Source: an uncultured Lentisphaerota bacterium
GTDB taxonomy: Bacteria > Verrucomicrobiota > Lentisphaeria > Oligosphaerales > CAITYL01
Direction: 5' to 3'
DNA: 64,000 bases
NCBI GenBank assembly: GCA_903921725.1
Contig: CAIXRA010000003.1
Location: 39,428-103,427 of the forward strand
A model generated the notes under the pieces. It did not search any database. It was not told the origin of the DNA and saw nothing but the letters and a program-made list of their open reading frames with translations. The position numbers were made by a program, and so were the translations under genes. Shown one piece after another: positions 2,663-61,844 of this stretch (the stretch's first letter is position 1; the number at the start of each line of letters is the position of its first letter).

Positions 2663-4207
2663 TCACAGGATCGGCGTGAAAAGGCTGCACAGATTTTCCA
2701 GAAGCTTGCGGCGGAGCGGGCGGGCGCGCCAGGCTGCGAGATTGATCTCTCGGCCGCACGCCATCTCCTGCAAGGCGAGCTGGCGGATCTCAGCCACGAA
2801 CGCGGCGTCGTACACGGCCAGGTTCGTCTCGTAGTTCAGGCGCAGGCTGCGGATGTCGAGGTTGGCGGTGCCGACCAACGCCAGCGTGTCGTCCATGATC
2901 ATCGCCTTGGCGTGCATGAAAGGCGGGGCGCGCTCGAAGATGCGGACTCCACAGGCGAGCAGATCATCGTAGAGCGCCTGACCGGCAAGTCCGGCGTAGG
3001 CGTGGTTGTTGGCGAGCGGAACGGTTAGGCGCACGTCCACGCCCCGCCGCGCGGCGGCGCGCAGCGCCTGCATGATGTCCGGCCCCGGCACGAAATAAGG
3101 GGTGGTGATCCACAGTTCGCGCCGCGCCGAGATGATGGCCAAGAAGAAGACTTCGTTGATCGCCTCCTGCTCCACCGAAGGGCCGCTGTTGATGACCCGC
3201 ACCGGCATCGTCCCCGCCGCCGGTACCGCCGGGAAGTGCGCCGCCTGCAGGAGCACGCCGGGCTCCTCATCGGTCATGTAGGACCAGTCGCGGAGGAAGG
3301 AGAACTGCAGTTCCTGCACCACGGGGCCCCCGACCTCAAAATGGTAGTCGCGGATGGCCTCGGGCGTGTGCGCGGAGTGATGCCCGTCGTGGAGGTTGAT
3401 GCCGCCGGTGAAGGCGCGCACGCCGTCCACGATCAGCACCTTGCGGTGGTTGCGCAGGTTGAGCTGGAACTGGGCCTTGAGGAGGTTGACCTGACGCCAG
3501 CCGGCAATCTTCAGGTTCGGGATGTTGCGGTAGCGCCGGAAGAAGCGCCCCCAGACCGCATGCGTGGAGCCGAAGCGGTCGTAGAGCAGGCGGACGGTGA
3601 CGCCGGCGCGGGCGCGTTCGGCCAGCGCCTCCATGAACTCGCGGCCGACGGCGTCGTTGCCGAAGATGAAGCTCTGGAGGTGGATGTGGTGCCGCGCGGA
3701 GCGGATCGCCTCCAGCATCGGCGGGTACGCCTCGTCGCCGTCGACCAGCGGGAGCACCCGGTTCCCGGCCAGCAGCGGGTATTCCTCCAGCATGCCGTCG
3801 AGCGAACGGTTGAAAAGGCGCCCCTCCTCCGATGGCGGCTCGCAGCTCCGGGACTCATGCACCGCCCGCCAGTAGGCCATGGACAGGCTCGGCTCCTCGC
3901 GCTGTCGGCGCTCCTCCGCGAACTGTTGGTCCGCGCGGTGCTTGAGCTTGGCCTTCTCCGGCAGCCGGTAGATGCCGAACAGGAGGTAGAGCAGGGGGCC
4001 GGCAACGGGGATGAACCAGGCGACGTTCAGCCAGAGCAGGGCGGAGGCCGGCTCCCGCCGGTGGCGCAGGCAGTGCCCCGCCACCAGCGCGAACGCCGCC
4101 ACATGCATCAGCGAGCCCAGCGAAACCCATTCCCACAGCGGGGGTTGTGCGTTGCCGGCCGCCGGGACGGCGGCGGACAACAGCAGGATGTGCGGCAGCG
4201 TGTGCAT
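2663..4207 (-). CDS. cls: cardiolipin synthase (PLD superfamily, two HKD motifs)
   Basis: N-terminal TM helices and two HxK(x)4D motifs (NHRKVLIVDG and HAKAMIMDD). Track start 4216 is GTG; first ATG is at 4207. Confidence 0.9.
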   Translation of the reverse strand: MHTLPHILLLSAAVPAAGNAQPPLWEWVSLGSLMHVAAFALVAGHCLRHRREPASALLWLNVAWFIPVAGPLLYLLFGIYRLPEKAKLKHRADQQFAEERRQREEPSLSMAYWRAVHESRSCEPPSEEGRLFNRSLDGMLEEYPLLAGNRVLPLVDGDEAYPPMLEAIRSARHHIHLQSFIFGNDAVGREFMEALAERARAGVTVRLLYDRFGSTHAVWGRFFRRYRNIPNLKIAGWRQVNLLKAQFQLNLRNHRKVLIVDGVRAFTGGINLHDGHHSAHTPEAIRDYHFEVGGPVVQELQFSFLRDWSYMTDEEPGVLLQAAHFPAVPAAGTMPVRVINSGPSVEQEAINEVFFLAIISARRELWITTPYFVPGPDIMQALRAAARRGVDVRLTVPLANNHAYAGLAGQALYDDLLACGVRIFERAPPFMHAKAMIMDDTLALVGTANLDIRSLRLNYETNLAVYDAAFVAEIRQLALQEMACGREINLAAWRARPLRRKLLENLCSLFTPIL

Positions 4208-4315: not shown

Positions 4316-5368
4316 TTACTTCCCGCCGAAAAGCCTGCGCCAAAGCCCCGGTTTTGCCGCTGCCTCCTCCATCCTCTTTGCGATGTCGGCGCGGTGGCGT
4401 AGTTCCTGCCGGTGGATGTCTGCAAACATGGCGCGGATTTCGGGGGAGGCCGATTCCTCCGTGAAAACCCGGAACGAATCGTTCTCAATGGTCTGGTTTT
4501 CGACCGTGCTGGCGATGCCGAGGGCCACGTCCTCCGTGACCGGCCCCCGCTGGGCGGCGGCGATCTGCTCCTCGATGAACGCCGTGGAGGAGCGGATGGT
4601 TTCGAGTGCGAAGCGATCCGCGGAAAAGTCCAGCTCCCCCGCCGCAATCCGCTCCCCGATCCGGGCCAGGATGGCGGCATGTTCCGCCTCTTCGCCGGCG
4701 AGGCCGTTCCAGAAAGCCGCCGCCGCCGGGAAAAGCCGGGCATATTCGCCGTAGAGCCGGGCGACGGTTTTTTCGTGCCGGACCATGCCGGCGAGGACGG
4801 TCTGCCTGGCCATGGCGGCGGCAATCCGGGACGGCACCGCGGGCGGGGCGATGACCGTCTCGCCCCTCCACAGGGGCGCTGCCTGGTTGTCGGGGGCCGC
4901 GGGTGAAAGTCCCAGCACAATCTGCCGGTGATACAGTGATTCGCGGTACAATTGTTCGGCGACTTTCCGGAAGGGGCTGTCGTCCGCCGCCGGCGCCGCA
5001 CTGAAGAGGAAGCTCTCCACCAGCGCGGATTCCAGCAGGAGCGCGTTGGCGACGGCGCGCGTCTCCGTCACATCGCCGGCCGTGGCCTTCTCCAGCATGA
5101 CGGCAATCTGGGAGGTGATGAAATCGAGCGTGCCGGCCTGCAGTTTCTCCATGGGAATCTGTGCCAGTTCAGCGACCGCGCCGCTCAAGATCCCCTCCAA
5201 GCTGGCCCTGTGTTTCTCCTCCGCGCGGGCGAGGACGGCCCACGTTTCAGCCTGCTTCGGAAACTGCGCCGCATAGCACCCGTACAGCCGGCCGATGGCC
5301 GCCTCGTTTTCCATGGCCTGGCTCAGAAGCTTGATCCAGGCCTTCTGAATGTGGATGATGTCCTGCAT
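4316..5368 (-). CDS. tandem ferritin-like (rubrerythrin-type diiron four-helix-bundle) domain protein, function unknown
   Basis: Two homologous halves (AIGRLYGCYAAQFP...EEKHRASL vs TVARLYGEYARLFP...EEAEHAAIL). Each half has E / ExxH / E..E / ExxH-like ligand spacing. Confidence 0.6.
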   Translation of the reverse strand: MQDIIHIQKAWIKLLSQAMENEAAIGRLYGCYAAQFPKQAETWAVLARAEEKHRASLEGILSGAVAELAQIPMEKLQAGTLDFITSQIAVMLEKATAGDVTETRAVANALLLESALVESFLFSAAPAADDSPFRKVAEQLYRESLYHRQIVLGLSPAAPDNQAAPLWRGETVIAPPAVPSRIAAAMARQTVLAGMVRHEKTVARLYGEYARLFPAAAAFWNGLAGEEAEHAAILARIGERIAAGELDFSADRFALETIRSSTAFIEEQIAAAQRGPVTEDVALGIASTVENQTIENDSFRVFTEESASPEIRAMFADIHRQELRHRADIAKRMEEAAAKPGLWRRLFGGK

Positions 5369-9697: not shown

Positions 9698-10021
9698 CAC
9701 CCGGCAAAGAGACCGGATCCGCGGTATATTGCGGTTCTCCCGCGCGGCCGGCGGAGGGCGCCGCAATATCGGACGCCCATGGCGGCGAGCCAGGGAAGGT
9801 GCGCCTTCAGCCGGGTGCTTGCGGGTTTTGATTCAGGCTTCATCTTTTTGTCGCCTATTGGGTGTATTGTGACATGAGGTGTAATGTTTATGGCCTTGGT
9901 GAAATGCGGTATATGCTTTTAACTGCTTTGCTTTTATTGCGTTGTATTTTTTAAAATATCGGCATTGTTCTTTCTATCATTGCCGGATGAAGCGGTGCAG
10001 GTACAAGGACGGCAGGGGGAG

Positions 10022-51514: not shown

Positions 51515-51868
51515 TTAGAAAATATTTTTTACGGGCTCCGGCGCGGCGTACCGCGGCGCCATTTTCAGCGGCACAACCCCTTCCAGAAGAAGCGCCAGCG
51601 ACCGCCGGTCCAGCACCACCCGCCCGTCGCGCGGCTCCGGCACCTTGAACCGCCCCTTCTCCAGGCGCTTTCCCCAGATCGCCAGCCCGTCACCCTCCCA
51701 GCGCAGAATCTTCACCTGCGTCGAGTCGCGGTTGACGAACACATAGTGCGCCCCGTCCACCGGCGAACGCCCCGCCTGGCACACCAGCGCCGCCAGCCCG
51801 TGGTACGACTTGCGCATGCTCACCGGCGACCGCCACAGCAGGATCTCCGATGCGCCGACGCTCAGCAC
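51515..51868 (-). CDS. IS66 accessory protein TnpB (Orf2)
   Basis: VSMRKSYHGLAALVCQ...HYVFVNRDSTQVKILRWEGDGLAIWGKRLEKGRFKVP. GTG start overlaps the tnpA stop. Confidence 0.9.
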   Translation of the reverse strand: MLSVGASEILLWRSPVSMRKSYHGLAALVCQAGRSPVDGAHYVFVNRDSTQVKILRWEGDGLAIWGKRLEKGRFKVPEPRDGRVVLDRRSLALLLEGVVPLKMAPRYAAPEPVKNIF

Positions 51869-52182
51869 GCCGCCCCGCCCAAGCAGTACACCACCCGCCG
51901 CAGCGCCGCCTCGTCAAACACCGAACCGATCACCAGCTCCATCCCCGACGGGAACCGCAACACCAGCCCGCAGCCACGCTCCGGCTCCGCCTGAACCCGC
52001 ACAAAGCCGTCCGAACCGACGGCGCCAGCGCCTGCGGCCACACGACGCTCACGCCGCAGCCAATACTGGAACTTCCACAACGCCAGACTGTTCGCCCGGC
52101 AGAACCCCGCCTGCGAAATCCCGCTTTCACGCCAGCGCGCCGTCACCCCAGCCCAATGCTTCTGCTTCTCCGCGAGATTCAT
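51862..52182 (-). CDS. IS66 accessory protein TnpA (Orf1)
   Basis: MNLAEKQKHWAGVTARWRESGISQAGFCRANSLALWKFQYWLRR (HTH-like). Start at ATG 52182. Confidence 0.8.
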   Translation of the reverse strand: MNLAEKQKHWAGVTARWRESGISQAGFCRANSLALWKFQYWLRRERRVAAGAGAVGSDGFVRVQAEPERGCGLVLRFPSGMELVIGSVFDEAALRRVVYCLGGAAC

Positions 52183-52430
52183 CCGAAAAACTCCCGTCGC
52201 CAAGCCGACCACCGGCCCGCGACGGAAACAACCATACCCCGCACGCTCACGGAAAAACAGATGCGGCATATGCGACGGTTACCGCGCCGTCACCCCCGAC
52301 CAATGCTCCTGCTTCTCCGTGAGATTCATCCGCAAAAACTCCCGCCGCCAAGCCGACCACCGACCCGCAACGGAACCAACCATACCCAGCACGCTCACGG
52401 AAAAACAGATGCGTCATATGCGACGGTTAC
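52135..52430. repeat. tandem 148-nt duplication of the IS66 right end (IR + leader + first 16 tnpA codons)
   Basis: 52135-52282 versus 52283-52430, roughly 90% identical by eye. Copy 2 encodes [16 protein letters not shown] versus MNLAEKQKHWAGVTAR in copy 1. Confidence 0.85.
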
Positions 52431-52952
52431 CTGGCCGTCGAAGTGGACAGCTCGCTCTCCGGGCTGCGGGTCGTGCGGGTGCTGGAGCGGATCGCCGCCC
52501 TGCGCGGCAAGCCGGACCGCCTGCTGACAGACAATGGCCCGGAGTTTTCCGGCAAGGCGCTGGATGCGTGGGCTTATGCGAACGGCGTGCGGCAGGAGTT
52601 CATCGAACCCGGCAAGCCGGTGCAGAACGCCCGCGTCGAAAGCTTCAACGGCCGCATGCGGGATGAGTGCCTGAACGAGCACTGGTTCATCTCCATGAAA
52701 CACGCACGGGAAACCATCGAAAAATGGCGCGAAGACTACAACCACTTCCGCCCGCATGGATCGCTGAAAAACATGACTCCGGCCGAATTCGCGGAAACGT
52801 TCCGCACCGGATAGGCCGCGGCCCCCCCCCCGGGGGAGGGGGACCAGGGGAACACCAGAAACAAAACCAAACCAAGAAACAAACACCAAACACAAGATTA
52901 CAGTACGGACAAGACTCTCATTGCATTTGGTACAGACAATGGGGGCACGTCA
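52431..52952 (+). mobile_element. 3' remnant of an IS3-family (IS407-group-like) element, truncated by the IS66
   Basis: Integrase-core C-terminus [56 protein letters not shown]...[14 protein letters not shown] (to the stop at 52814). The putative terminal repeat TGGGGGCACGTCA ends at 52952 and resembles the TGACCTGCCCCC-type end recalled from memory. Confidence 0.75.
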
Positions 52953-53014: not shown

Positions 53015-53758
53015 CTACAAATCGTAGGACGGTCCGAATGTTGCCAGTTGCTGGCGACGTTGTTCGTAATCGGGCATGACCCGGCCCAAGAGGCGCCAAA
53101 ACTCTGGCGAATGCCGACTGTGGACGATGTGGCAGAGTTCATGGGCCACCACATACGCGACAAGCCGACGTGGAGCCATGATGACCCGCCAGTTAAAGCG
53201 CAGGTGGCCATTTGGGCCACCGCTGCCCCAACGCGTTTTCATGTCCAGCGCCCGCACCGAGGCAAACGCCACGCCCAGTTTTCGTGCAAAGTCGCGGGCC
53301 AAAACATCCAAATGCTCCATGGCGTGTTGCCGATACCAGCGGGTCAAGAGACGGCGAGTAACAACAACGCCCTCGTCATCCGTTAATGCAGGTGGTAGAT
53401 GCACCCAAAAACATCCGCGGGACAGGAGAATTTTCGAATGTTTTGCGGACGCATCCCTAACGATCCGTAGATGGTATTGCCGCCCGAGGTAGAGAAACGT
53501 TTCCCCGCTGACGAACTCTCGCGGCCGTCGCGGGTGATGACGCTGAATCCAGTCCTGCTGCTTCACTATCCAAGCCGCTTTCCGCTGAACTTCAGCGGCA
53601 ATCCGCACCTTTCGTTCTCCCTTTGGGGCGCTCACCATGACGCTCGCATCAGGGTTGACCGTAATGGCGAGAGTTTGCCGGCGGCTACTGCGCCGTACCT
53701 GGTAAACGATCTTGGTACCGCCAAACATGAGAGATGCTGTTTGTGCAGACGTGCTCAT
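53015..53758 (-). CDS. YgjP-like (DUF45 / M48-type) HExxH metal-dependent hydrolase
   Basis: VVAHELCHIVHSRHSPEFWRLL zinc motif. The ATGA overlap with the hsdR stop is a typical type I R-M association. Confidence 0.85.
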   Translation of the reverse strand: MSTSAQTASLMFGGTKIVYQVRRSSRRQTLAITVNPDASVMVSAPKGERKVRIAAEVQRKAAWIVKQQDWIQRHHPRRPREFVSGETFLYLGRQYHLRIVRDASAKHSKILLSRGCFWVHLPPALTDDEGVVVTRRLLTRWYRQHAMEHLDVLARDFARKLGVAFASVRALDMKTRWGSGGPNGHLRFNWRVIMAPRRLVAYVVAHELCHIVHSRHSPEFWRLLGRVMPDYEQRRQQLATFGPSYDL

Positions 53759-56700
53759 CTGAGCCGGATCCTCGCCAAGTCCATGATCTGGCTGGTAATG
53801 TCCTCAAGCTTGTCATCTTCCACATTGTTCAACCGGAGAAGGCGTTTTATTTTCCGGCGCATCTCCCGCTGGACATCCTCTTTGGCTTGCCAATCCAGTA
53901 CGGCGTCTTCCCGCACGGCTTCAAGGATGCCCTCCGCGAGAACCGACATCTGTGATCCGTATTCCTCACTGTCGTCATGCATTTCCATGTTCTTGGAAAG
54001 GATGCCGTAAATCGGGTATGCCGCTTCCGTAACGCCATGTGTCTTGGCCCGTTCCTCGCTGCCCCCCTTCATCTCTTCACGCAAGGACATCAGTACCTTG
54101 AACTCTTCCGTATCGTCAAGGCGTTGTTCCCGGCGGTCATGGATGATTCGTTCCAAACGTTCTTTGATGGACTCATAAAATACCGGATCTTCGTCCAGCT
54201 TGACGGAGATGGTACGTTTGATGGCATGCTCCATGCGACTGGCCTTTGCCCGCGGAGATTGAAGCTTGGCCACCTCCGCCGAAAACCCTTCCGACATGAT
54301 AGGGATTGCTTCCAGGAGGACACGGATTTCCTCTCCCTTGACATGACGGTCAATAAGTTCGCGGACACGTTCATGGCAGTCAGGCAACTGTGTGTCCTCT
54401 TCCTGGAAACAGGTCGCCATTTCCCGGCGCAGCCGGCGCAACCACGCAAAATCCTCCAAGAACGCGATAGCTCTTTGATCCGGCAGCAGTTGCTCGATTG
54501 CTCGGTAAAACTCCCGGTACCGGGCAAGAAAGACCGTGCGCTTGTCCTCAGGTTCAAGCGTCATGATCCACGGCTCGATATTGTCGCGCGTCAAATCAGC
54601 CGCAAACATGGCAAACACATCGGCGCGGCGTTGCTTTAGCGCCTGGTAAGCGGACTCATCGTCGCGGCGGTGTAACACGTCCTCAATGATCAGGTCATCG
54701 GCAAACACCGCCAGCGCCTTGTCCAAGAAGCCAGCAACGCCCCAATAGTCAACGATCAGCCCCCACTGCTTGTCCAACTCCGGCAACGGCCGGTTCACGC
54801 GCGCAATGGCCTGCAACAGGTTGTGCTCCCGCAGCGGCTTGTCCAAGTACAGCACACGTTCGATGGGGGCGTCAAAGCCGGTCAGGTATTTGTCCGCCAC
54901 CACGATGATCGCCAACTTATCGACGCCGTCTTCCTTAAACTGGTCAATGATGGCCTCTTCGTTTTCAAACTGTTTCTTTAGCTCCCACAAATTACTGTCT
55001 TTGGTGGACGGATCGGAAATCAGCAGGGCAACGCGATCCGGGAAGTACTTGCTAAGCTCTTTGTAATACTGCGCCGCCGCCAACTGCGAACAGGCGGCCA
55101 CCTGGGCCTTGAACCCGTCCGCCGCGAAATGTTGCTGGTAGTGGGTGGCAATGTCATGGGCGATCATCACCGTACGGTCGGTCGCCGCTTCGGCAATACG
55201 GCGCTCCGTGATTTCCTGCTGCTTCAATTTCTCCCGCTGCGGCACCGTCAGGTGCGCAAAAGACGCATCAAAGATTGGATCCAGCCGCTTGCCCCAGATG
55301 GCCAGTTCCGGCAACCGGCTTTCATACAGAATCCGCACCGTCGCGCCATCCGCTACCGACTGCGGCATGGTGTACTTATGGATGTATGGCCCGAACTTCT
55401 CCCGTGTCTTGTCAATCGGCGTTCCGGTGAACGCGATAAAGCAGGCATTGGGCAGTGCCTGCCGCATGTGCGCGGCAAACCACAGATATTGCGAGCGGTG
55501 CGCCTCGTCAACCAGGACAAAGACATTCCCCACCTCACTCAAGACTGGATGTTGGCTAACCTTTTTCCGCCCGACCGTTTCCCCTTCGCCGAAGAACTTT
55601 TGCACCGTGGTCATCACCGTCTGTCCCGCCGGCCCGCTGAGCAGTTTGCGGAGATGTAGCACACGCGCCGCCCGCACCGGGTTTTCAAACCCGCATCCTT
55701 GGAAGGTCTTGGAAATTTGCCGATCCAAATCCCGCCGGTCGGTAACGATCAGCAAGGTTGGATTATCAAGTTCTTTGGCACGCCGCAATTTCAGGCAAAG
55801 CCAGAGCATAGTCAGGCTCTTGCCGCTTCCCTGCGTGTGCCAGACAACACCATTGCGTTCCTTTACCGGCAGCTTGCTGGTGGGGTCGGTAATCCGCCGG
55901 ATCGCCTCATTCACCGCCTCGTATTGCTGGTAGCGCGCCAGTTTCTTCACCACGCGCCCGCCATCCCGGTCAAAGGCGACAAAGTTGCGTGCCAGATCCA
56001 GCAGATTCTCCTTGGCAAACAGCCCCGCCAGCGTAACGTCCTGCTTGGTCAGGGGGCGGCCTATCATGCGCTCCAGGTCATATCGGCTGCGCGGATACAC
56101 ACTCTTCCATTCCATGTACCGGTTCAAGGGTGTCTCGACCGTCCCGTATCGTGCATCGCTACGCTTCGTCGCCACGCAGAACAGCACCGTATGGAAAAGC
56201 CGGGTCACCCCTTTTTCCATGTCCTGATAGGCGAGCATGTCTCGTACCGCATGCTCGATCCCATGCTCATCCCCCGGCGCCTTACACTCAACTACGGCCA
56301 AGGGAATGCCGTTGACAAAAAGTACCAGATCCAGACGCCGCGTCGCCCGCGGCCCCCGCACCGTAAACTCCTCGACCACCAGAAACTCATTGTTTAGGGG
56401 ATTGTCGAAATCAATGAACCGTACGCTTGGCGCCACCAATTTTCCGCCGCGCGTCTCCTCCACGGTCACCCAGCGGCTCGCCAGCCGGTAACAAGCCTCA
56501 TTGGCATCCAACAGCCCGGCCACCAGCGGTTGCTGCAGCGCCGCGATGGCCTGCCTTACCCCAACTTCGGTCAGTCCCGGATTGATCTCCTGTAGCTTCC
56601 GGCTCAGCCGGGCGAGCAGCAATACCTCGGTCTCGCTTTCCCGTTCCGCTGCGAACTCCGCCGCTTGTCCGTCCGCATGGTCATAGCCGAATACGTCCCG

Positions 56701-56763
56701 CAGCAATTCGACCGCCGGCCGCTGGACTTCCGTGTATTCAGGTCCGTTTCTGGGCATTGGCAT
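53755..56763 (-). CDS. hsdR: type I restriction enzyme, R (endonuclease/translocase) subunit
   Basis: N-terminal PEYTEVQRPAVELL, nuclease-core region (VNGIPLAVVECK), SF2 motifs WHTQGSGKSLTM and LVDEAHRSQ; about 1000 aa. Confidence 0.93.
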   Translation of the reverse strand: MPMPRNGPEYTEVQRPAVELLRDVFGYDHADGQAAEFAAERESETEVLLLARLSRKLQEINPGLTEVGVRQAIAALQQPLVAGLLDANEACYRLASRWVTVEETRGGKLVAPSVRFIDFDNPLNNEFLVVEEFTVRGPRATRRLDLVLFVNGIPLAVVECKAPGDEHGIEHAVRDMLAYQDMEKGVTRLFHTVLFCVATKRSDARYGTVETPLNRYMEWKSVYPRSRYDLERMIGRPLTKQDVTLAGLFAKENLLDLARNFVAFDRDGGRVVKKLARYQQYEAVNEAIRRITDPTSKLPVKERNGVVWHTQGSGKSLTMLWLCLKLRRAKELDNPTLLIVTDRRDLDRQISKTFQGCGFENPVRAARVLHLRKLLSGPAGQTVMTTVQKFFGEGETVGRKKVSQHPVLSEVGNVFVLVDEAHRSQYLWFAAHMRQALPNACFIAFTGTPIDKTREKFGPYIHKYTMPQSVADGATVRILYESRLPELAIWGKRLDPIFDASFAHLTVPQREKLKQQEITERRIAEAATDRTVMIAHDIATHYQQHFAADGFKAQVAACSQLAAAQYYKELSKYFPDRVALLISDPSTKDSNLWELKKQFENEEAIIDQFKEDGVDKLAIIVVADKYLTGFDAPIERVLYLDKPLREHNLLQAIARVNRPLPELDKQWGLIVDYWGVAGFLDKALAVFADDLIIEDVLHRRDDESAYQALKQRRADVFAMFAADLTRDNIEPWIMTLEPEDKRTVFLARYREFYRAIEQLLPDQRAIAFLEDFAWLRRLRREMATCFQEEDTQLPDCHERVRELIDRHVKGEEIRVLLEAIPIMSEGFSAEVAKLQSPRAKASRMEHAIKRTISVKLDEDPVFYESIKERLERIIHDRREQRLDDTEEFKVLMSLREEMKGGSEERAKTHGVTEAAYPIYGILSKNMEMHDDSEEYGSQMSVLAEGILEAVREDAVLDWQAKEDVQREMRRKIKRLLRLNNVEDDKLEDITSQIMDLARIRLR

Positions 56764-58264
56764 ACGCCTTTCCGTGCAAGCCGTCCGTCTCGCCCCCGAC
56801 ACCAGCGTCCAGCGCCGCCCGCCCCAATGCCGTCAACCGGTATTTCTGCATCCGGCTCTGCGGCTTTTCGGGTAGTGTCATCTCAACCAAGCCAGCGGCC
56901 AATGCGGGCATGACATAGGCCTCCCGTACATGTGTCCGGTCACGCAACCCCAACTCCTCCCGGATCTCCGCCGCGCCAAGTTCCCCACGGTTCGCCAACG
57001 TCCGCAACAGCGCCCCTACTGGTGGGGTGACTGGTGGGGTGACTGGTGGGGTGACGCCCCCTGTTACTTTGCCCTGGCTGCATGGCTTGAACGTCACCAC
57101 CACTGTACGGGCGCTTTCGCTCCAGGCCGGCTCCGGTGCCAGCCCCTCGTTGCACCAGCGCAGGATATTGATGGCACCGCTGCCCCAGCGCTCGATGATT
57201 CCGGCACGGTGTAGCACCGACGCGATGATGGGATTCCACGGACGCGATGCATGCGCACTCCGCAACTTCTCCGACGTGATGCCGAAATGGAACTCGCCCG
57301 GATTCGTGATCTCCAGATGGTCATCGTACATGGCGACTTCCACAGCGCCACCGGCCATGGCGTAGTCACGGTGACAGAATGCATTCGCCAACGCCTCCCG
57401 CGTTGCCCGCGGCGGATAGTCTGGAAAATCCTCCCGCTGCATCTTGCCGGCAACCACCCGCCCGGCAATGTGTACATGGTCAGCCAGAAACTGTTCGGCG
57501 TGCCGGAGCAGGCAGAATATACCGCCCCAGTATTCCCGATTGTCCGCGAACTCCGCCAGCCGGTTGACGCCCCGGAACCGTCCCAGACGCACGCTGAATT
57601 GCGGAAATTGTGCAAACAGCGAACGGTTCGGATGCGCATACAACGCGACCGCGGCGTTCATCAGCCTGCCGTCATCCGCCATGAGATTCAACCCAACCAA
57701 CGCGGCCGTCGTATCCGTGGCGGAAATGGCCCCGAGCCGCCCAAGTTGCTGGGCCGTAATGACAGTCTGCCGAATCTCATCGGCATCCAGGTCGGCAAGC
57801 GTCACCCCCGCCGGGCATGGCTGATTCTCCCAACGCACGGTGCCATGCAATTTCTCGGCCAACCTGAGTTCGTAAAGCGCCTGCGGCATCTCCGACGTCG
57901 TTGGCCCCAGTCGTAGGAACGGCCGCCGCCGATAAGTGAACGGACCACCGCCCCCCGGCACGGTTAAAACGATGGCGGAGCGTCCGGGCACCACGGACAC
58001 CACGTCCAAGTCCGGCACCGTCGCCGGCTGGATTTCCCGGATCGTGGCGGCCACTTCCTCCAGGGTATCCGTCCCCAACTCCTGGCCCAACAGCCGTCCG
58101 TCCGGTGTCACGCCAAAGACCACCCGCCCACCCTCGCCATTCAGCATGGCGCACAACGTCTCCATGGCCCGCGAACGTTGCCCCGTGGACTGCTTGAACT
58201 CAAGCGTCTGGCTCTCCCCAGCAGAAATCAGTTGTTGGAGCTCTGTAAGTGTCATCATGCTCAT
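56738..58264 (-). CDS. AlbA_2 (Schlafen-like) + HATPase_c_4 + C-terminal wHTH protein (often annotated as a RecG-like/transcriptional regulator)
   Basis: ESQTLEFKQS...LCAMLNGEGGRVVFGV (AlbA_2), REALANAFCHRDY...IERWGSGI (HATPase_c_4-like), C-terminal wHTH. It overlaps the hsdR start by 26 nt. Confidence 0.8.
   Translation of the reverse strand: MSMMTLTELQQLISAGESQTLEFKQSTGQRSRAMETLCAMLNGEGGRVVFGVTPDGRLLGQELGTDTLEEVAATIREIQPATVPDLDVVSVVPGRSAIVLTVPGGGGPFTYRRRPFLRLGPTTSEMPQALYELRLAEKLHGTVRWENQPCPAGVTLADLDADEIRQTVITAQQLGRLGAISATDTTAALVGLNLMADDGRLMNAAVALYAHPNRSLFAQFPQFSVRLGRFRGVNRLAEFADNREYWGGIFCLLRHAEQFLADHVHIAGRVVAGKMQREDFPDYPPRATREALANAFCHRDYAMAGGAVEVAMYDDHLEITNPGEFHFGITSEKLRSAHASRPWNPIIASVLHRAGIIERWGSGAINILRWCNEGLAPEPAWSESARTVVVTFKPCSQGKVTGGVTPPVTPPVTPPVGALLRTLANRGELGAAEIREELGLRDRTHVREAYVMPALAAGLVEMTLPEKPQSRMQKYRLTALGRAALDAGVGGETDGLHGKAYANAQKRT
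57019..57054. repeat. 3 x 12-nt perfect tandem repeat (CTGGTGGGGTGA) encoding (VTPP)3
   Basis: Read directly. It is in frame within the linker before the C-terminal wHTH of the AlbA_2 protein. Confidence 0.9.
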
Positions 58265-58270
58265 CCTATC

Positions 58271-58666
58271 TCAGCCGAGTTTTCCGGCGATATACACGAT
58301 CAAGGCCAAATAGCCAACGACATTCAAACAGACCTTGCCCCAGAAGAACCCCAGCGTCGGCCAGTTGATCTTTATGGGAGCTTTCAACACTTTGTCCTCC
58401 TTAACCCCGGCTTTCTCTTTGCGCCGACAGAAAAGCCCCCAAGCCGCCGTAGCGTAAATGTAATGTCCGAGGTCGAATGCCAGCGATACCGCAAACAAGT
58501 AGAGAACCCATAGCAGACTTGGCGCAAATGGGATGCCACCACCGTTCTTGTCACCAACTCGGAATATCCAAATGATGGCAATGCCCGCGAAGTTTAGTTG
58601 ACGAGTGATCTCGCTCAACTTGGCGGAATACCCGTAGTACTCTTGGCGGTAGTCTGATAATTTCAT
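58271..58666 (-). CDS. small 3-TM membrane protein (possibly SLATT-like; unverified)
   Basis: Soluble N-helix YRQEYYGYSAKLSEITRQL followed by hydrophobic helices NFAGIAIIWIF, LLWVLYLFAVSLAF and GKVCLNVVGYLALIVYIAG. Its ATG overlaps the stop of the 59-aa ORF. Confidence 0.7.
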   Translation of the reverse strand: MKLSDYRQEYYGYSAKLSEITRQLNFAGIAIIWIFRVGDKNGGGIPFAPSLLWVLYLFAVSLAFDLGHYIYATAAWGLFCRRKEKAGVKEDKVLKAPIKINWPTLGFFWGKVCLNVVGYLALIVYIAGKLG

Positions 58667-58842
58667 TTGGGCCTTCCTGAATCCCGCTTCGGACCAGTGC
58701 TGCTGGTTTCTTCCTTGTGCCCACGACTGAAACCACCCTGCGGGGTGTCACGGTTACTGATTAATGTGCCCTCGCCATGTCTTTCAACGGGGCGTTGTTC
58801 GTTTGTTTTCGGCGGTGGCGGAACGATTTTCTTGTCGCTCAT
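58663..58842 (-). CDS. 59-aa hydrophilic P/G/K-rich protein (absent from the supplied ORF track)
   Basis: Hand translation: MSDKKIVPPPPKTNEQRPVERHGEGTLISNRDTPQGGFSRGHKEETSSTGPKRDSGRPK*. AAGGAG lies 8 nt upstream of the ATG, and the ATGA overlap couples it to the TM gene. Confidence 0.5.
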   Translation of the reverse strand: MSDKKIVPPPPKTNEQRPVERHGEGTLISNRDTPQGGFSRGHKEETSSTGPKRDSGRPK

Positions 58843-58925: not shown

Positions 58926-60050
58926 TCAAAACCCCTGACACCCGTAAGCAGCCAATGTAACATCCGCCACCTCGTAACCATGACGAAACAGGCGGTCATA
59001 CTCATTTGGTGTCAACCGACGGAGAGTGGTTTCGGTGCCTGCCGCCGCCGCAACGTCTTCCTTGCTCATTAACAACGGTTTGTCCGTCCCGGCAGGTGGT
59101 TGCACGCGAGCCATACTCCATATCGCATCGGCCGTATTACCCATCCTAAAGAACGCCCCATTCTTTTTCTGGTTAAAGTGGTCAACGATTGCTCGTGCGC
59201 GTATCGAGCGAACCTGATCGGTCGCGACATCGATGAGTCTAAACGGGGGAATGTATTGCGGCAATCCCCACTGAAACCGCTTGAACTCAAGCCCCAAGGG
59301 CCGTGAAGCGTCACTGACAATATAGAAGTCAACCTCCTTGCGAAGGCCACGTCCGGGCTTAAATATTGCTTCCGATCCAAGATTATCGTACACGCCACCA
59401 TCCCACAGTGTAAGCTTGGGAGCAATGGGATCTACTGGTACGGACGGCTCTCCGCCTGTTTCTTCACCAAAACCCTTGGCGTATTTGAGCCACGCATACT
59501 TCGTTGTTGCTAACCGAAGCGGGCCAATCAGACCAGGTACCGCGGCAGATGCGGCAGCAGCATCTGCAAGCGGAAACGATGGATTTACCACATAGTTCGC
59601 AAGGTAATCCCCCATCCTCTTAGCACAAAACCTCCAACTCTTCCCCGTCTCATAGCAAGTGGCATTGATGACCATACGGGGGTGAAGAGGTAGGTCCTGT
59701 AGGTCTGCATCAATTCCCCACTTGCTCTTCAGTAGTCGAGCAATTATTGAGGCTCTTCCCCTGGGTAGCAACCATGGATTCAGAAGCATTTTCAACATGT
59801 AGGCGCGTTGCAAGTTACAAGTAGTCAGCAGGGTTCGAATGTGGGGCAGAACTTCTTGGTATTGCTTTGCGTCAGGCCACCGTTTTCCGGCTTTCTGGAA
59901 AATTAAGGCTGCGCAGAGACTCCCGCCCGAGACCGTTGACAAAAAGGAGATGTCCCCCCACCGGGGGCCGTTCGCAAGGCGGGAAAGCATACCGAGATGG
60001 AACACCGTTGCTCGTACTCCACCGCCAGAGAGTGAAATGCCGACTTTCAT
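58926..60050 (-). CDS. patatin-like phospholipase
   Basis: Oxyanion motif LSGGGVRAT, nucleophile elbow TVSGGS, catalytic Asp motif WDGGVYDNLG. The TAATG overlap couples it to the upstream MBL gene. Confidence 0.9.
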   Translation of the reverse strand: MKVGISLSGGGVRATVFHLGMLSRLANGPRWGDISFLSTVSGGSLCAALIFQKAGKRWPDAKQYQEVLPHIRTLLTTCNLQRAYMLKMLLNPWLLPRGRASIIARLLKSKWGIDADLQDLPLHPRMVINATCYETGKSWRFCAKRMGDYLANYVVNPSFPLADAAAASAAVPGLIGPLRLATTKYAWLKYAKGFGEETGGEPSVPVDPIAPKLTLWDGGVYDNLGSEAIFKPGRGLRKEVDFYIVSDASRPLGLEFKRFQWGLPQYIPPFRLIDVATDQVRSIRARAIVDHFNQKKNGAFFRMGNTADAIWSMARVQPPAGTDKPLLMSKEDVAAAAGTETTLRRLTPNEYDRLFRHGYEVADVTLAAYGCQGF

Positions 60051-60883
60051 TAGTCGCCCTCATACTGGTTAAACGTATACGCCCCCTCGGGCGTAATTGA
60101 GAAATGGATTCGCCCTTTCTGTTTAGTGGACAAAAACTTCTTTATTTCTCCATTTAATTTCAACCCCAACGGTTTTTCTCGAAAACTCTTGTCGGTCGGT
60201 GATTGCCCTGCAACATCGCTGATCAAGGCAAGGTGTGGGTTTATGCAGTCCATCATGTGCTGTGAGTAACCTGATTCCCGGCCGTGGTGGGGTGCCACGA
60301 GGATTCGCCATTTTGCAGCCTTAATAAGTGGCTCGAAAACTTCTTTCTTAGCGGTCCACAATTCCTGCCAACCGCTGTCTTCGATGTCGCCAGGGCAGAC
60401 GAACAGCCATCCGGCGTATAAGTAGAAAGCTACCACAGAAGTATTATTCCCGGTACATGACTCGGAATAATTGTTATACCCTGCCTTGACTTCGACGCCA
60501 CCATTGTAAGTGGAATTCATTGGACTTTCGGCATCTGCCACCGGCGAAATATAGGTGGTATCAAGTATCCTGAATGTCTTTTGGTAATCCAGTGTAGCAC
60601 TTTTGAATTTCTCTTCCTCGGGCAGGGATTTATTGCGTAGAAGAATCCGCGGATTTCCGAGAGACTCCACAAGTTGCGTCAGATCATTTAAATGGTCGCC
60701 ATCAGGGTGGCTAAGGATCAGGAAGTCAAGTTTGGTGACTGCGTACTTCTCTTTCACCCATTTGCTTGGCGAAAAATCACCTGCGCGACCGGCATCAATC
60801 CAATGATGCTGACCAGCCGGTGTCTGTAGCCAAATAGCGAGTCCATGTTCCACGTCCCAAAGCGTAAATATAAAGTCCGGCAT
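60050..60883 (-). CDS. MBL-fold metallo-hydrolase, ComEC/Rec2-type (HxDxDH variant)
   Basis: WDVEHGLAIWL, ILSHPDGDHLNDL and VAPHHGRESG. Start at ATG 60883 with GAGGTG upstream, 4 nt after the preceding stop. Confidence 0.85.
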   Translation of the reverse strand: MPDFIFTLWDVEHGLAIWLQTPAGQHHWIDAGRAGDFSPSKWVKEKYAVTKLDFLILSHPDGDHLNDLTQLVESLGNPRILLRNKSLPEEEKFKSATLDYQKTFRILDTTYISPVADAESPMNSTYNGGVEVKAGYNNYSESCTGNNTSVVAFYLYAGWLFVCPGDIEDSGWQELWTAKKEVFEPLIKAAKWRILVAPHHGRESGYSQHMMDCINPHLALISDVAGQSPTDKSFREKPLGLKLNGEIKKFLSTKQKGRIHFSITPEGAYTFNQYEGD

Positions 60884-60887
60884 TTTG

Positions 60888-61844
60888 TCACCTCGTATAT
60901 TGGGATTTGATTTTTCCACACCCTGCGTCATCAATTGTTACCCAAATATTTCCACGCCAACGCGTAGACCATACATTTTTACAATAGTTGCTATACTTAC
61001 TCGAAGCGTCAGTCTCCGGCTTTTTCCCGACAGACACAATTGTGTACTCTGGTTGCATTAACGCAACTGCTTTTGCACAATAACCGGTATCACGACCGTG
61101 GTGGCTTGCTTTTAGAATATCGCATTTTAGATCAGCCCCATAGTATTCGGCAACCTCTTCCCATGCCGCCTCTTCGGCATCACCGCCGAAAATAATTTTA
61201 ATGCCATTGTAAGTCAAACGAAGAATGTAGCTGAAGTTGTTAGGATTCTCTGCCGCCGCACCTGTGGCTGATGTATTTCTGCCAAATGGCGGATGTAGAA
61301 TTTCGATACCATCACCAGGCTTTACGCCGGCTGGGTTCTCTCCATAGTAAATCCCACTCGCTCCCCGATTCAATCGTAAAATTTTGTTGCCCCGTAGCCC
61401 CTTTTGATGCGCTTGATATTCGGCCAAGTCTGCGTTGTTTTCATCTTTTAAGGGAGGGACAAAGGAGTGTGCGGTATCCCAAAAGTTGTGGATTTTTCGT
61501 CCATCCGCATATAATGCAGCGAGACCACACATGTGATCCTTATGGGGGTGACTCTGGATATAACGAAAAATATCTTTTCCGGGATACTGTTCACGCAGAA
61601 AATCAATGGGGTTGGTCAAGTCAATGTTGTACCCCTGTGCCGCTACTTTTTCAAGTAACAACGATTCGTTCAATATTTCTTCGCCTTGGGGCAGGCCTAA
61701 TGGATAATATTCCTGCAGTTCGTTCAATGTATCAATATCCATTTCTTGACCATTGTTTATATCAATCATGGTTAGTAACTGACTTGCATGTTGAATGACA
61801 GTGCAGTCCCCATGGCCGACATTTAAGAAATCGATTCTCACCAT
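60888..61844 (-). CDS. MBL-fold metallo-hydrolase, ComEC/Rec2-like (HxHxDH)
   Basis: FLNVGHGDCTVI, IQSHPHKDHMCGL, IFGGDAE and KASHHGRDTG. Confidence 0.88.
   Translation of the reverse strand: MVRIDFLNVGHGDCTVIQHASQLLTMIDINNGQEMDIDTLNELQEYYPLGLPQGEEILNESLLLEKVAAQGYNIDLTNPIDFLREQYPGKDIFRYIQSHPHKDHMCGLAALYADGRKIHNFWDTAHSFVPPLKDENNADLAEYQAHQKGLRGNKILRLNRGASGIYYGENPAGVKPGDGIEILHPPFGRNTSATGAAAENPNNFSYILRLTYNGIKIIFGGDAEEAAWEEVAEYYGADLKCDILKASHHGRDTGYCAKAVALMQPEYTIVSVGKKPETDASSKYSNYCKNVWSTRWRGNIWVTIDDAGCGKIKSQYTR

Follow-up and report, generated by a model that had tools for sequence, protein, structure and literature searches.

A seven-residue peptide tag marks a widespread coupled gene pair and may dock small proteins on a three-helix membrane protein

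What is a 59-codon open reading frame (ORF) doing between a patatin gene and the gene for a small membrane protein? The question arises in a 64,000-nucleotide stretch of DNA from an uncultured Lentisphaerota bacterium (contig CAIXRA010000003.1), which we analyzed as a whole and call the window. The first-pass annotation of this DNA had proposed that the small ORF is translationally coupled to the gene for a 131-amino-acid protein with three transmembrane (TM) helices, that the TM protein may be a SLATT-like pore effector of a patatin system, and that the 59-residue protein could be its inhibitor or adaptor. All three genes lie on the minus strand, and the features of the locus, in window coordinates, are as follows.

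60050-58926, minus strand: patatin ORF from the ORF list (Pfam Patatin, 1.1e-12).
58898-58869, minus strand: weak candidate internal promoter, TTGGAT-N18-TATAGA, taken from the sequence only and unreported by a consensus scan.
58855-58850, minus strand: Shine-Dalgarno-like AAGGAG, read from the sequence, 7 nucleotides (nt) from the small-ORF ATG (58842).
58842-58663, minus strand: gene for the small partner protein of 59 amino acids (aa), MSDKKIVPPPPKTNEQRPVERHGEG..., rich in Pro, Gly, Lys, and Arg (ORF list).
58707-58687, minus strand: tail tag TSSTGPK, 7 codons ahead of the stop, a match to the family motif described below.
58678-58672, minus strand: Shine-Dalgarno-like AGGAAGG for the TM gene, within the 3' end of the small ORF, read from the sequence.
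58666-58663, minus strand: ATGA stop/start overlap (TGA 58665-58663, ATG 58666-58664), the site of translational coupling.
58666-58271, minus strand: gene for the 131-aa membrane protein (ORF list, hydropathy, AlphaFold2).

The gap between the patatin stop and the small ORF is 83 nt (58925-58843), as first annotated, and holds no minus-strand terminator. The spacer from AAGGAG to the ATG had been given as 8 nt, and the sequence corrects this to 7; the AGGAAGG lies 5 nt upstream of the TM-gene ATG. The TTGGAT-N18-TATAGA motif proposed as an internal promoter is present but failed a sigma-70 consensus scan. Since the gap also lacks a terminator, an internal promoter there is a weak candidate that is neither supported nor excluded.

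The 59-codon ORF is a real gene. In a relative, locus L075, the TM protein is 75% identical to that of the window, and identity across the small ORF amounts to 68% for the protein and 67% for the DNA. The nonsynonymous divergence (dN) of 0.26 and synonymous divergence (dS) of 2.3 give a dN/dS ratio of 0.11, indicating purifying selection. The frame is conserved in L075, L076, and L077 at lengths of 59 to 63 aa, and the gene callers of identical or related contigs annotate it as a gene of 59 to 63 aa. In L076, whose TM protein shares 58% identity with that of the window, the flanking genes are wholly different, yet the small protein keeps the C-terminal block GFSRGHK(E/D)ET(S/N)STGPKR. The conservation in relatives, the dN/dS ratio, and the ATGA overlap bear out the proposal that the frame is real and translationally coupled, and the comparison of synonymous with nonsynonymous changes in homologous loci, suggested as a check, returned purifying selection. 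The 59-aa protein has no recognizable domain and matched nothing in Pfam, NCBIfam, PADLOC, or PHROGs.

We recovered 74 genome loci of the TM protein family. On the first pass, a small co-directional ORF ended at the TM start in 68 of them, and the remaining loci were mostly explained by an ORF in another frame, a variant motif, or a degraded copy. The gap between partner and TM gene was within +/-10 nt in 59 of the 68 loci, and stop and start codons overlapped by 4 nt or 1 nt in 25. Overall, ~90% of 75 loci have such a coupled small ORF ahead of the TM gene. Adjacent, co-directional small genes with this stop/start coupling are arranged as in type II toxin-antitoxin (TA) modules. The two genes form an obligate, translationally coupled pair that is widespread and unannotated. 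At one locus (L030, ~3280-3500), an in-frame IS630-like transposase truncates the 5' end of the TM gene and no partner ORF remains, which illustrates how a cassette can decay.

Compared with one another, the partners are not similar in sequence overall (mean column identity, 5%), and the sole feature common to these otherwise unrelated proteins is a short tag, T-x-S-(T/G)-G-P-(R/K). The consensus across partners is (G)-T-[GND]-[SGH]-[TG]-G-[PA]-[RK], usually 1 to 15 residues from the C terminus. For searches, we used the 7-residue family motif T-x-[STGNHD]-[TG]-G-[PA]-[RK] and, for ORF counts, the 4-residue core. The core was present in 51 of the 68 first-pass partners versus 3.1% of 3152 control ORFs. 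The 7-residue form gave 51 matches within 420 nt upstream of TM genes and 4 elsewhere (683 kb, six frames); 3 of these 4 fell in a second partner ORF right after the TM gene in three Bacteroidota loci. In six frames of the 64-kb window it occurs once, as TSSTGPK in the 59-aa ORF. All four synonymous codons are used about evenly for the Thr, Gly, and Pro of the tag, which places selection on the peptide rather than on an RNA or Shine-Dalgarno element; a nucleotide-level origin of the tag was rejected on the same observation. Among the tag codons of 46 loci, 23 of the 34 for Arg are AGA or AGG. Because the tag begins 17 to 65 nt ahead of the TM start, this bias may stem from tag codons that coincide with the Shine-Dalgarno region serving the TM gene. 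The tag is a peptide-level feature specific to pairing with the TM protein. We found no description in the literature of the tag motif, of DUF7420 (a Pfam family discussed below), or of an HU or histone-like protein paired with a membrane effector.

The tag is not fixed in place or number. In the HU-type partner of L037 it is N-terminal, L036 has a glycine-rich variant near the N terminus, and it is present twice in L046 and L027. The 200-aa partner of L080 (an IMG/VR contig, 4380-4982) consists of three ~50-residue repeats, each opening with ...MSQNGTGPR(L/V)EVKVGDKVINI..., so that this partner is multivalent for the tag. A natural in-frame fusion, P0081, joins a lysine-rich tagged segment to the TM protein. 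This independence of position is as expected of a docking motif, to judge from the sequences. Tagged genes also vary in arrangement: in the Bacteroidota loci L032, L033 (6309-6554), and L043 (3908-4093), the TM gene is closely followed by a second small ORF with the tag, and two tagged ORFs stand in tandem upstream of the TM gene in L018.

Most of the partners look like DNA binders, being strongly basic or recognizable nucleoid proteins. Pfam searches of 73 partners identified HU in 7, the histone-H1-like HC2 in 5, Hc1 in 1 (5e-24), and a GcrA-like domain in 2; one further partner is considered below, and the rest gave no match. The HU-HIG profile PF18291 matched 6 of the 73 (best, 4.5e-10), and the classical HU profile PF00216 scored far better (3e-34). 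The 51 tag-bearing partners are mostly rich in Lys and Arg, with a median isoelectric point of 10.8 and a median net charge of +14. The small Pro-, Gly-, and Lys-rich protein of the window is very probably a dedicated binding partner of the TM protein, as had been suggested for it.

The description of the downstream protein as a soluble N-terminal helix plus three TM helices held up in both hydropathy and AlphaFold2 analyses. Hydropathy gave hydrophobic segments at residues 23-38, 43-68, and 109-131. AlphaFold2 with 25 homologues predicted long helices at 3-34, 49-85, and 98-130, with a mean predicted local distance difference test (pLDDT) score of 90.8. The Lys plus Arg values of 4.0 for the N terminus, 0.6 for loop 1, 5.1 for loop 2, and 0.9 for the C terminus predict an N-in/C-out topology. 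Residues S18, R22, A27, G28, A30, W33, L62, D65, and K111 are invariant in the family alignment, and E84 is nearly so; within the TM helices, the conserved elements are AGIAxxW in TM1, an Asp in TM2, and a Lys in TM3. Given the predicted N-in topology, the invariant polar residues would be on the cytoplasmic side.

A word-indexed homologue search yielded 55 matches, and an exhaustive profile search yielded 2471 clusters at 50% identity (E<=0.001). The distribution is patchy across bacteria: the phyla and classes of the 74 loci include Verrucomicrobiota, Planctomycetota, Bacteroidota, Acidobacteriota, Nitrospirota, Proteobacteria, Chloroflexota, and Paceibacteria, among others. The TM protein belongs to no recognized family in Pfam, NCBIfam, PADLOC, PHROGs, or PDB sequences. 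A sequence-profile search of the PDB returned nothing at E<=10, and a PHROG scan of six proteins (the two from the window and four family members) returned nothing below an E value of 0.003 and nothing annotated as a holin. DUF7420 (PF24195), a Pfam family without known function, gave weak matches in 5 of 25 family members (best E value, 0.0017) and none for the window protein. The best Foldseek match in the PDB was the three-TM kinase DgkA, which is nonsignificant (E value, 0.8; TM-score, 0.54; 6 to 9% identity).

Taken as sequence evidence, these features suggest that the pair is probably a TA-like or abortive-infection module of mobile and defense islands. For the full reading, in which an autonomous, horizontally mobile, and patatin-independent cassette would dock its partner on the TM protein through the tag and act as such a module, we estimate a probability of roughly 0.45. 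We propose that the tag is a short linear motif that would dock the partner onto a conserved polar cytoplasmic face of the TM protein, formed by the N-terminal helix, S18/R22, D65, E84, and K111. Made in fixed proportion, the two proteins would work together at the inner membrane as a single complex. The partner, as a disordered and probably labile protein that binds nucleic acids, would hold the TM protein inactive, as in type II TA or abortive-infection systems. If the partner were lost, titrated, or displaced, for example on phage takeover or nucleoid damage, the TM protein would be freed to depolarize the cell. The TM part may oligomerize into a channel or pore, which is the less secure step. 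The strong conservation of the TM helices suggests that the membrane part is more than a mere anchor, and the TA-like operon layout together with the mobile and defense contexts suggests an effector restrained by a labile partner. Covariation between the motif and the TM protein in 50 related pairs placed 11 of the 15 strongest columns in cytoplasmic segments, a merely suggestive result, since 50 related pairs give no control for phylogeny.

The surroundings of the cassette in other genomes are consistent with an autonomous unit. All-versus-all BLAST clustering, with Pfam and PADLOC searches of 32 downstream and 129 nearest neighbors, found no conserved third gene. Neighbors in other genomes include TIR, AbiEi, AbiJ, a type II restriction endonuclease, dGTPase, HsdR, PIN, and an integrase. 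The cassette of Vibrio tasmaniensis and relatives (L081-L083) has a 45-aa partner (~9867-10004) ending in ...GTSSGGPRNPYERR. On one side of it are two GmrSD_N genes and on the other a resolvase with RelB/YafQ or HigBA, and a CI/LexA-like repressor and transposases are close by. A temperate Vinavirales Vibrio virus (L079, PQ189331.1) carries the cassette at its accessory genome end, after the repressor, with a tagged partner of 88 aa (L079 5725-5991). In PQ189331.1 and in the NCBI Vibrio assemblies, the tagged partners were left unannotated and only the TM gene was called. Elsewhere, the flanking genes encode a CI/LexA-like repressor and a TIR protein in L043 and a dGTPase in L033.

Several observations weigh against this reading. 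Housekeeping genes, including those for ribosomal proteins, Trp synthase, ribonucleotide reductase, and Mur ligase, are neighbors too, and for this reason the defense association is anecdotal and unquantified. A plasmid search gave 0 family matches, and viral copies were rare (1 phage record and 1 IMG/VR contig); both are unusual for classical TA modules. Profile and fold searches revealed no similarity of the TM protein to known pore-forming effectors. The HU-like and histone-like domains of the partners bind DNA nonspecifically, unlike the operator-specific domains of typical antitoxins. The window partner is only mildly basic (net charge, +4), two partners are acidic (L001 and L054), and one of the 73 searched with Pfam is a papain-like peptidase (L005). 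An AlphaFold2 model of the fusion P0081, made without an alignment, was uninformative (pLDDT, 59).

The main rival of the effector reading is a nontoxic tether, in which a three-TM receptor would use the tag to bring nucleoid-associated or other basic proteins to the inner membrane. Possible uses would be nucleoid organization, sequestration of a histone-like compaction factor, or the trapping of incoming DNA in superinfection exclusion, with no killing of the cell. The mostly nucleoid-type partners, the natural fusion of partner and TM protein, the occurrence of multivalent partners, and the ordinary genes that the cassette often adjoins all favor a tether. There is also a precedent: an earlier study proposes that membrane-anchored HU links the nucleoid to the envelope (PMC5499826). 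The TM helices, however, are conserved well beyond the needs of a passive anchor; some partners, including that of the window, are not basic or lack DNA-binding features; and the patchy distribution, variable neighbors, and mobile or defense islands fit an accessory selfish or defense module better. We regard the tether as a serious alternative that is nonetheless somewhat unlikely.

The tag could also belong to a widespread docking system, unrecognized until now, in which it is displayed on interchangeable histone-like or nucleic-acid-binding modules and read by the three-TM receptor. Such a system would couple the state of the DNA or nucleoid to the membrane and would represent a new defense or exclusion principle, with invading DNA or phage attack on nucleoid proteins being sensed and leading to membrane permeabilization or DNA trapping. 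Based on the sequences analyzed here, we consider this view doubtful.

Two readings that dispense with both toxicity and tethering are less likely than these, one giving the TM protein an enzymatic role and the other making the tag a translational arrest element. As a small integral-membrane enzyme (a kinase, transferase, or peptidase), the TM protein would modify or cleave the Thr/Ser-rich tag. Hydroxyl residues are indeed abundant in the tag, the invariant S18, R22, D65, and K111 could make a catalytic site, and the best fold matches, at TM-scores of ~0.5, are to the kinase DgkA. Those matches are nonsignificant, three-helix bundles match through topology alone, the sequence matches no enzyme family, and no nucleotide-binding motif was seen in the TM protein; we find this explanation improbable.

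The first proposal, a SLATT-like pore effector of a patatin system with the 59-aa protein as inhibitor or adaptor, had its own merits. In the window and its closest relatives the pair directly follows the patatin gene with no terminator between, the GC content of the pair resembles that of the patatin gene and not that of the SLFN gene downstream, and a HAD-like hydrolase plus a TM protein is a known anti-phage pair of P4 hotspots (PMC9122126). The link to patatin fails beyond this neighborhood. By tblastn, a patatin homologue was found at 0 of the 74 loci, nor did these loci hold homologues of the SLFN, metallo-beta-lactamase (MBL), or DUF3800 proteins of the window. Patatin was also absent from the recurrent neighbor families. 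The patatin gene precedes the pair only in the closest relatives, L075 and L077, and in the 58%-identical relative L076 the pair is kept with other neighbors. The absence from all 74 loci and the heterogeneous neighbors argue that patatin is no family-level partner. As a candidate assignment, membership of the pair in a patatin system was rejected on this 0/74 co-occurrence. The SLATT comparison fares no better. With hmmscan there was no SLATT or DUF4231 match for the window protein (E<=0.1) or for 25 members (E<=1), the protein has three TM helices and not a two-TM hairpin, and there are no nucleotide-cyclase or SMODS neighbors; a TIR domain occurs in 2 of the 129 nearest neighbors, and no cyclase recurs. 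PADLOC gave 0 matches for the TM protein and only a weak phospholipase-effector match for the patatin (E value, 0.024). The patatin/SLATT model is already contradicted at the family level, and we consider it very improbable.

Finally, a functionless small protein whose tag is a cis-acting nascent-peptide arrest element in the style of SecM, MifM, or VemP, controlling TM-gene translation, is the least credible reading, because, even though the tag usually precedes by 1 to 15 codons a stop codon overlapping or adjoining the TM start, contains Gly-Pro, and is biased toward AGA/AGG codons that overlap possible Shine-Dalgarno sequences, its position varies (N-terminal in L037, three internal repeats in L080, within the in-frame fusion P0081, and, in L032, L033, and L043, in ORFs that follow the TM gene and have no coupled gene after them), the partners keep folded domains (HU and Hc1), and the entire small ORF is under purifying selection.

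The window cassette would be one further module of a low-GC defense island inserted in a type I restriction-modification (R-M) locus. The region is a conflict-type island with type I R-M genes, two MBL genes (PADLOC PDC-M48B), DUF3800, patatin, and SLFN/AlbA_2. Around the pair we found the following genes.

63951-63184, minus strand: HsdS of the type I R-M system.
60050-61844, minus strand: two tandem overlapping MBL-fold genes of 294 and 318 aa (PADLOC PDC-M48B, 8e-40 and 5e-22).
56738-58264, minus strand: SLFN_AlbA_2 + HATPase_c_4 + Fic-like_C protein of 508 aa, starting 6 nt past the TM stop.
56802-53015, minus strand: HsdR/YgjP of the type I R-M system.

The type I R-M genes are separated by ~6.4 kb of cargo comprising DUF3800, the two MBL genes, patatin, the cassette, and SLFN/AlbA_2. 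Within the cargo, GC content is 45 to 53%, versus 62 to 70% in flanking DNA (50.0-52.6 kb), and it returns to ~63% exactly at the boundary between the TM and SLFN genes near 58264. No PDC-M48A partner of the MBL genes was seen in the window; one neighbor of a TM cassette in another genome matched PDC-M48A. The SLFN_AlbA_2 protein contains a PVTPPVTPPVTPPV repeat and has weak matches to PADLOC models associated with prokaryotic Argonaute, and the same gene also follows the cassette in L075 and L077. As listed, the HsdR ORF (53755-56802, minus strand) begins at a GTG and shares 65 nt with the 3' end of the SLFN gene; HsdR probably starts instead at one of the ATGs within this frame (MPMPRNGPEY...). 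At the island border, 51800-52900 holds insertion-sequence remnants with a duplicated N-terminal segment on the minus strand, and the plus strand carries an rve-like integrase-core fragment at 52443-52814. In terms of annotation, patatin and the TM pair are best treated as separate defense-island modules and not one system.

With neither protein in a known family, the cassette appears from its sequence to be a new kind of module, and should the toxicity model hold, it would count as a novel form of TA or abortive-infection system. The pair would be a new protein family pair of ~2,500 clusters (50% identity) in many phyla and one temperate virus that current profile libraries miss, and its tag is a searchable marker for hidden small genes. 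It forms a modular link between a membrane protein and nucleoid-type proteins, which bears on how DNA state and membrane are coupled, and it may embody a new abortive-infection or exclusion mechanism.

Among known systems, type II TA and abortive-infection modules share the most with the cassette: two small co-directional genes with a 4-nt stop/start overlap, an upstream protein whose N-terminal part varies and often binds DNA and whose C-terminal part has a short conserved element, and a patchy distribution in variable, mobile, or defense regions. Most of the membrane toxins described so far are tiny peptides of type I or type V systems, whereas the putative toxin of the cassette is a 131-aa three-TM membrane protein. 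The cassette also differs in that neither protein is homologous to any TA family in Pfam, NCBIfam, or PADLOC, that its partners carry nonspecific nucleoid domains and not the operator-binding ribbon-helix-helix, helix-turn-helix, or AbrB types, and that no plasmid copies were found.

Arrest-peptide leaders such as SecM-SecA, MifM-YidC2, and VemP-SecDF2 likewise have a small upstream ORF, a conserved C-terminal peptide, and an adjacent membrane-related gene. The tag of the cassette also occurs N-terminally, internally, downstream, and fused, and its partners have folded domains and no signal or TM segments. DgkA, the top Foldseek match in the PDB, resembles the TM protein in its N-terminal amphipathic helix, three TM helices, and length of ~120 to 130 aa; the match is nonsignificant, and there is no sequence similarity. 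The SLATT/DUF4231 two-TM effectors of the kind found in systems like cyclic-oligonucleotide-based anti-phage signaling (CBASS) and related conflict systems are also small helical membrane proteins with a soluble helix in conflict islands. The cassette differs from them in its three TM helices, in the lack of a profile match at E<=1 among 25 members, and in its linkage to a tagged small protein and not to cyclases, SMODS, SLOG, or TIR sensors. The hydrolase-TM pairs (PMC9122126) are alike in the window, where a lipid hydrolase (patatin) gene is followed by the three-TM gene; they differ in that no PADLOC model matches and that the linkage is confined to the closest relatives of the window.

The HU-HIG clade bears on the partner and its tag together. 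In the study by Burroughs et al. 2017 (PMC5499826), these are HU proteins whose C-terminal tail, short, conserved, and glycine-containing, is proposed to engage a partner. Membrane anchoring of HU is proposed there to tether DNA, and the study reports no conserved operon partner for HU-HIG. The clade has a modified HU domain with an extra N-terminal hairpin and a glycine-rich C-terminal tail; the window partner has no HU domain. In the cassette, HU is one of many interchangeable modules, and it is the tag and the dedicated three-TM protein that define it.

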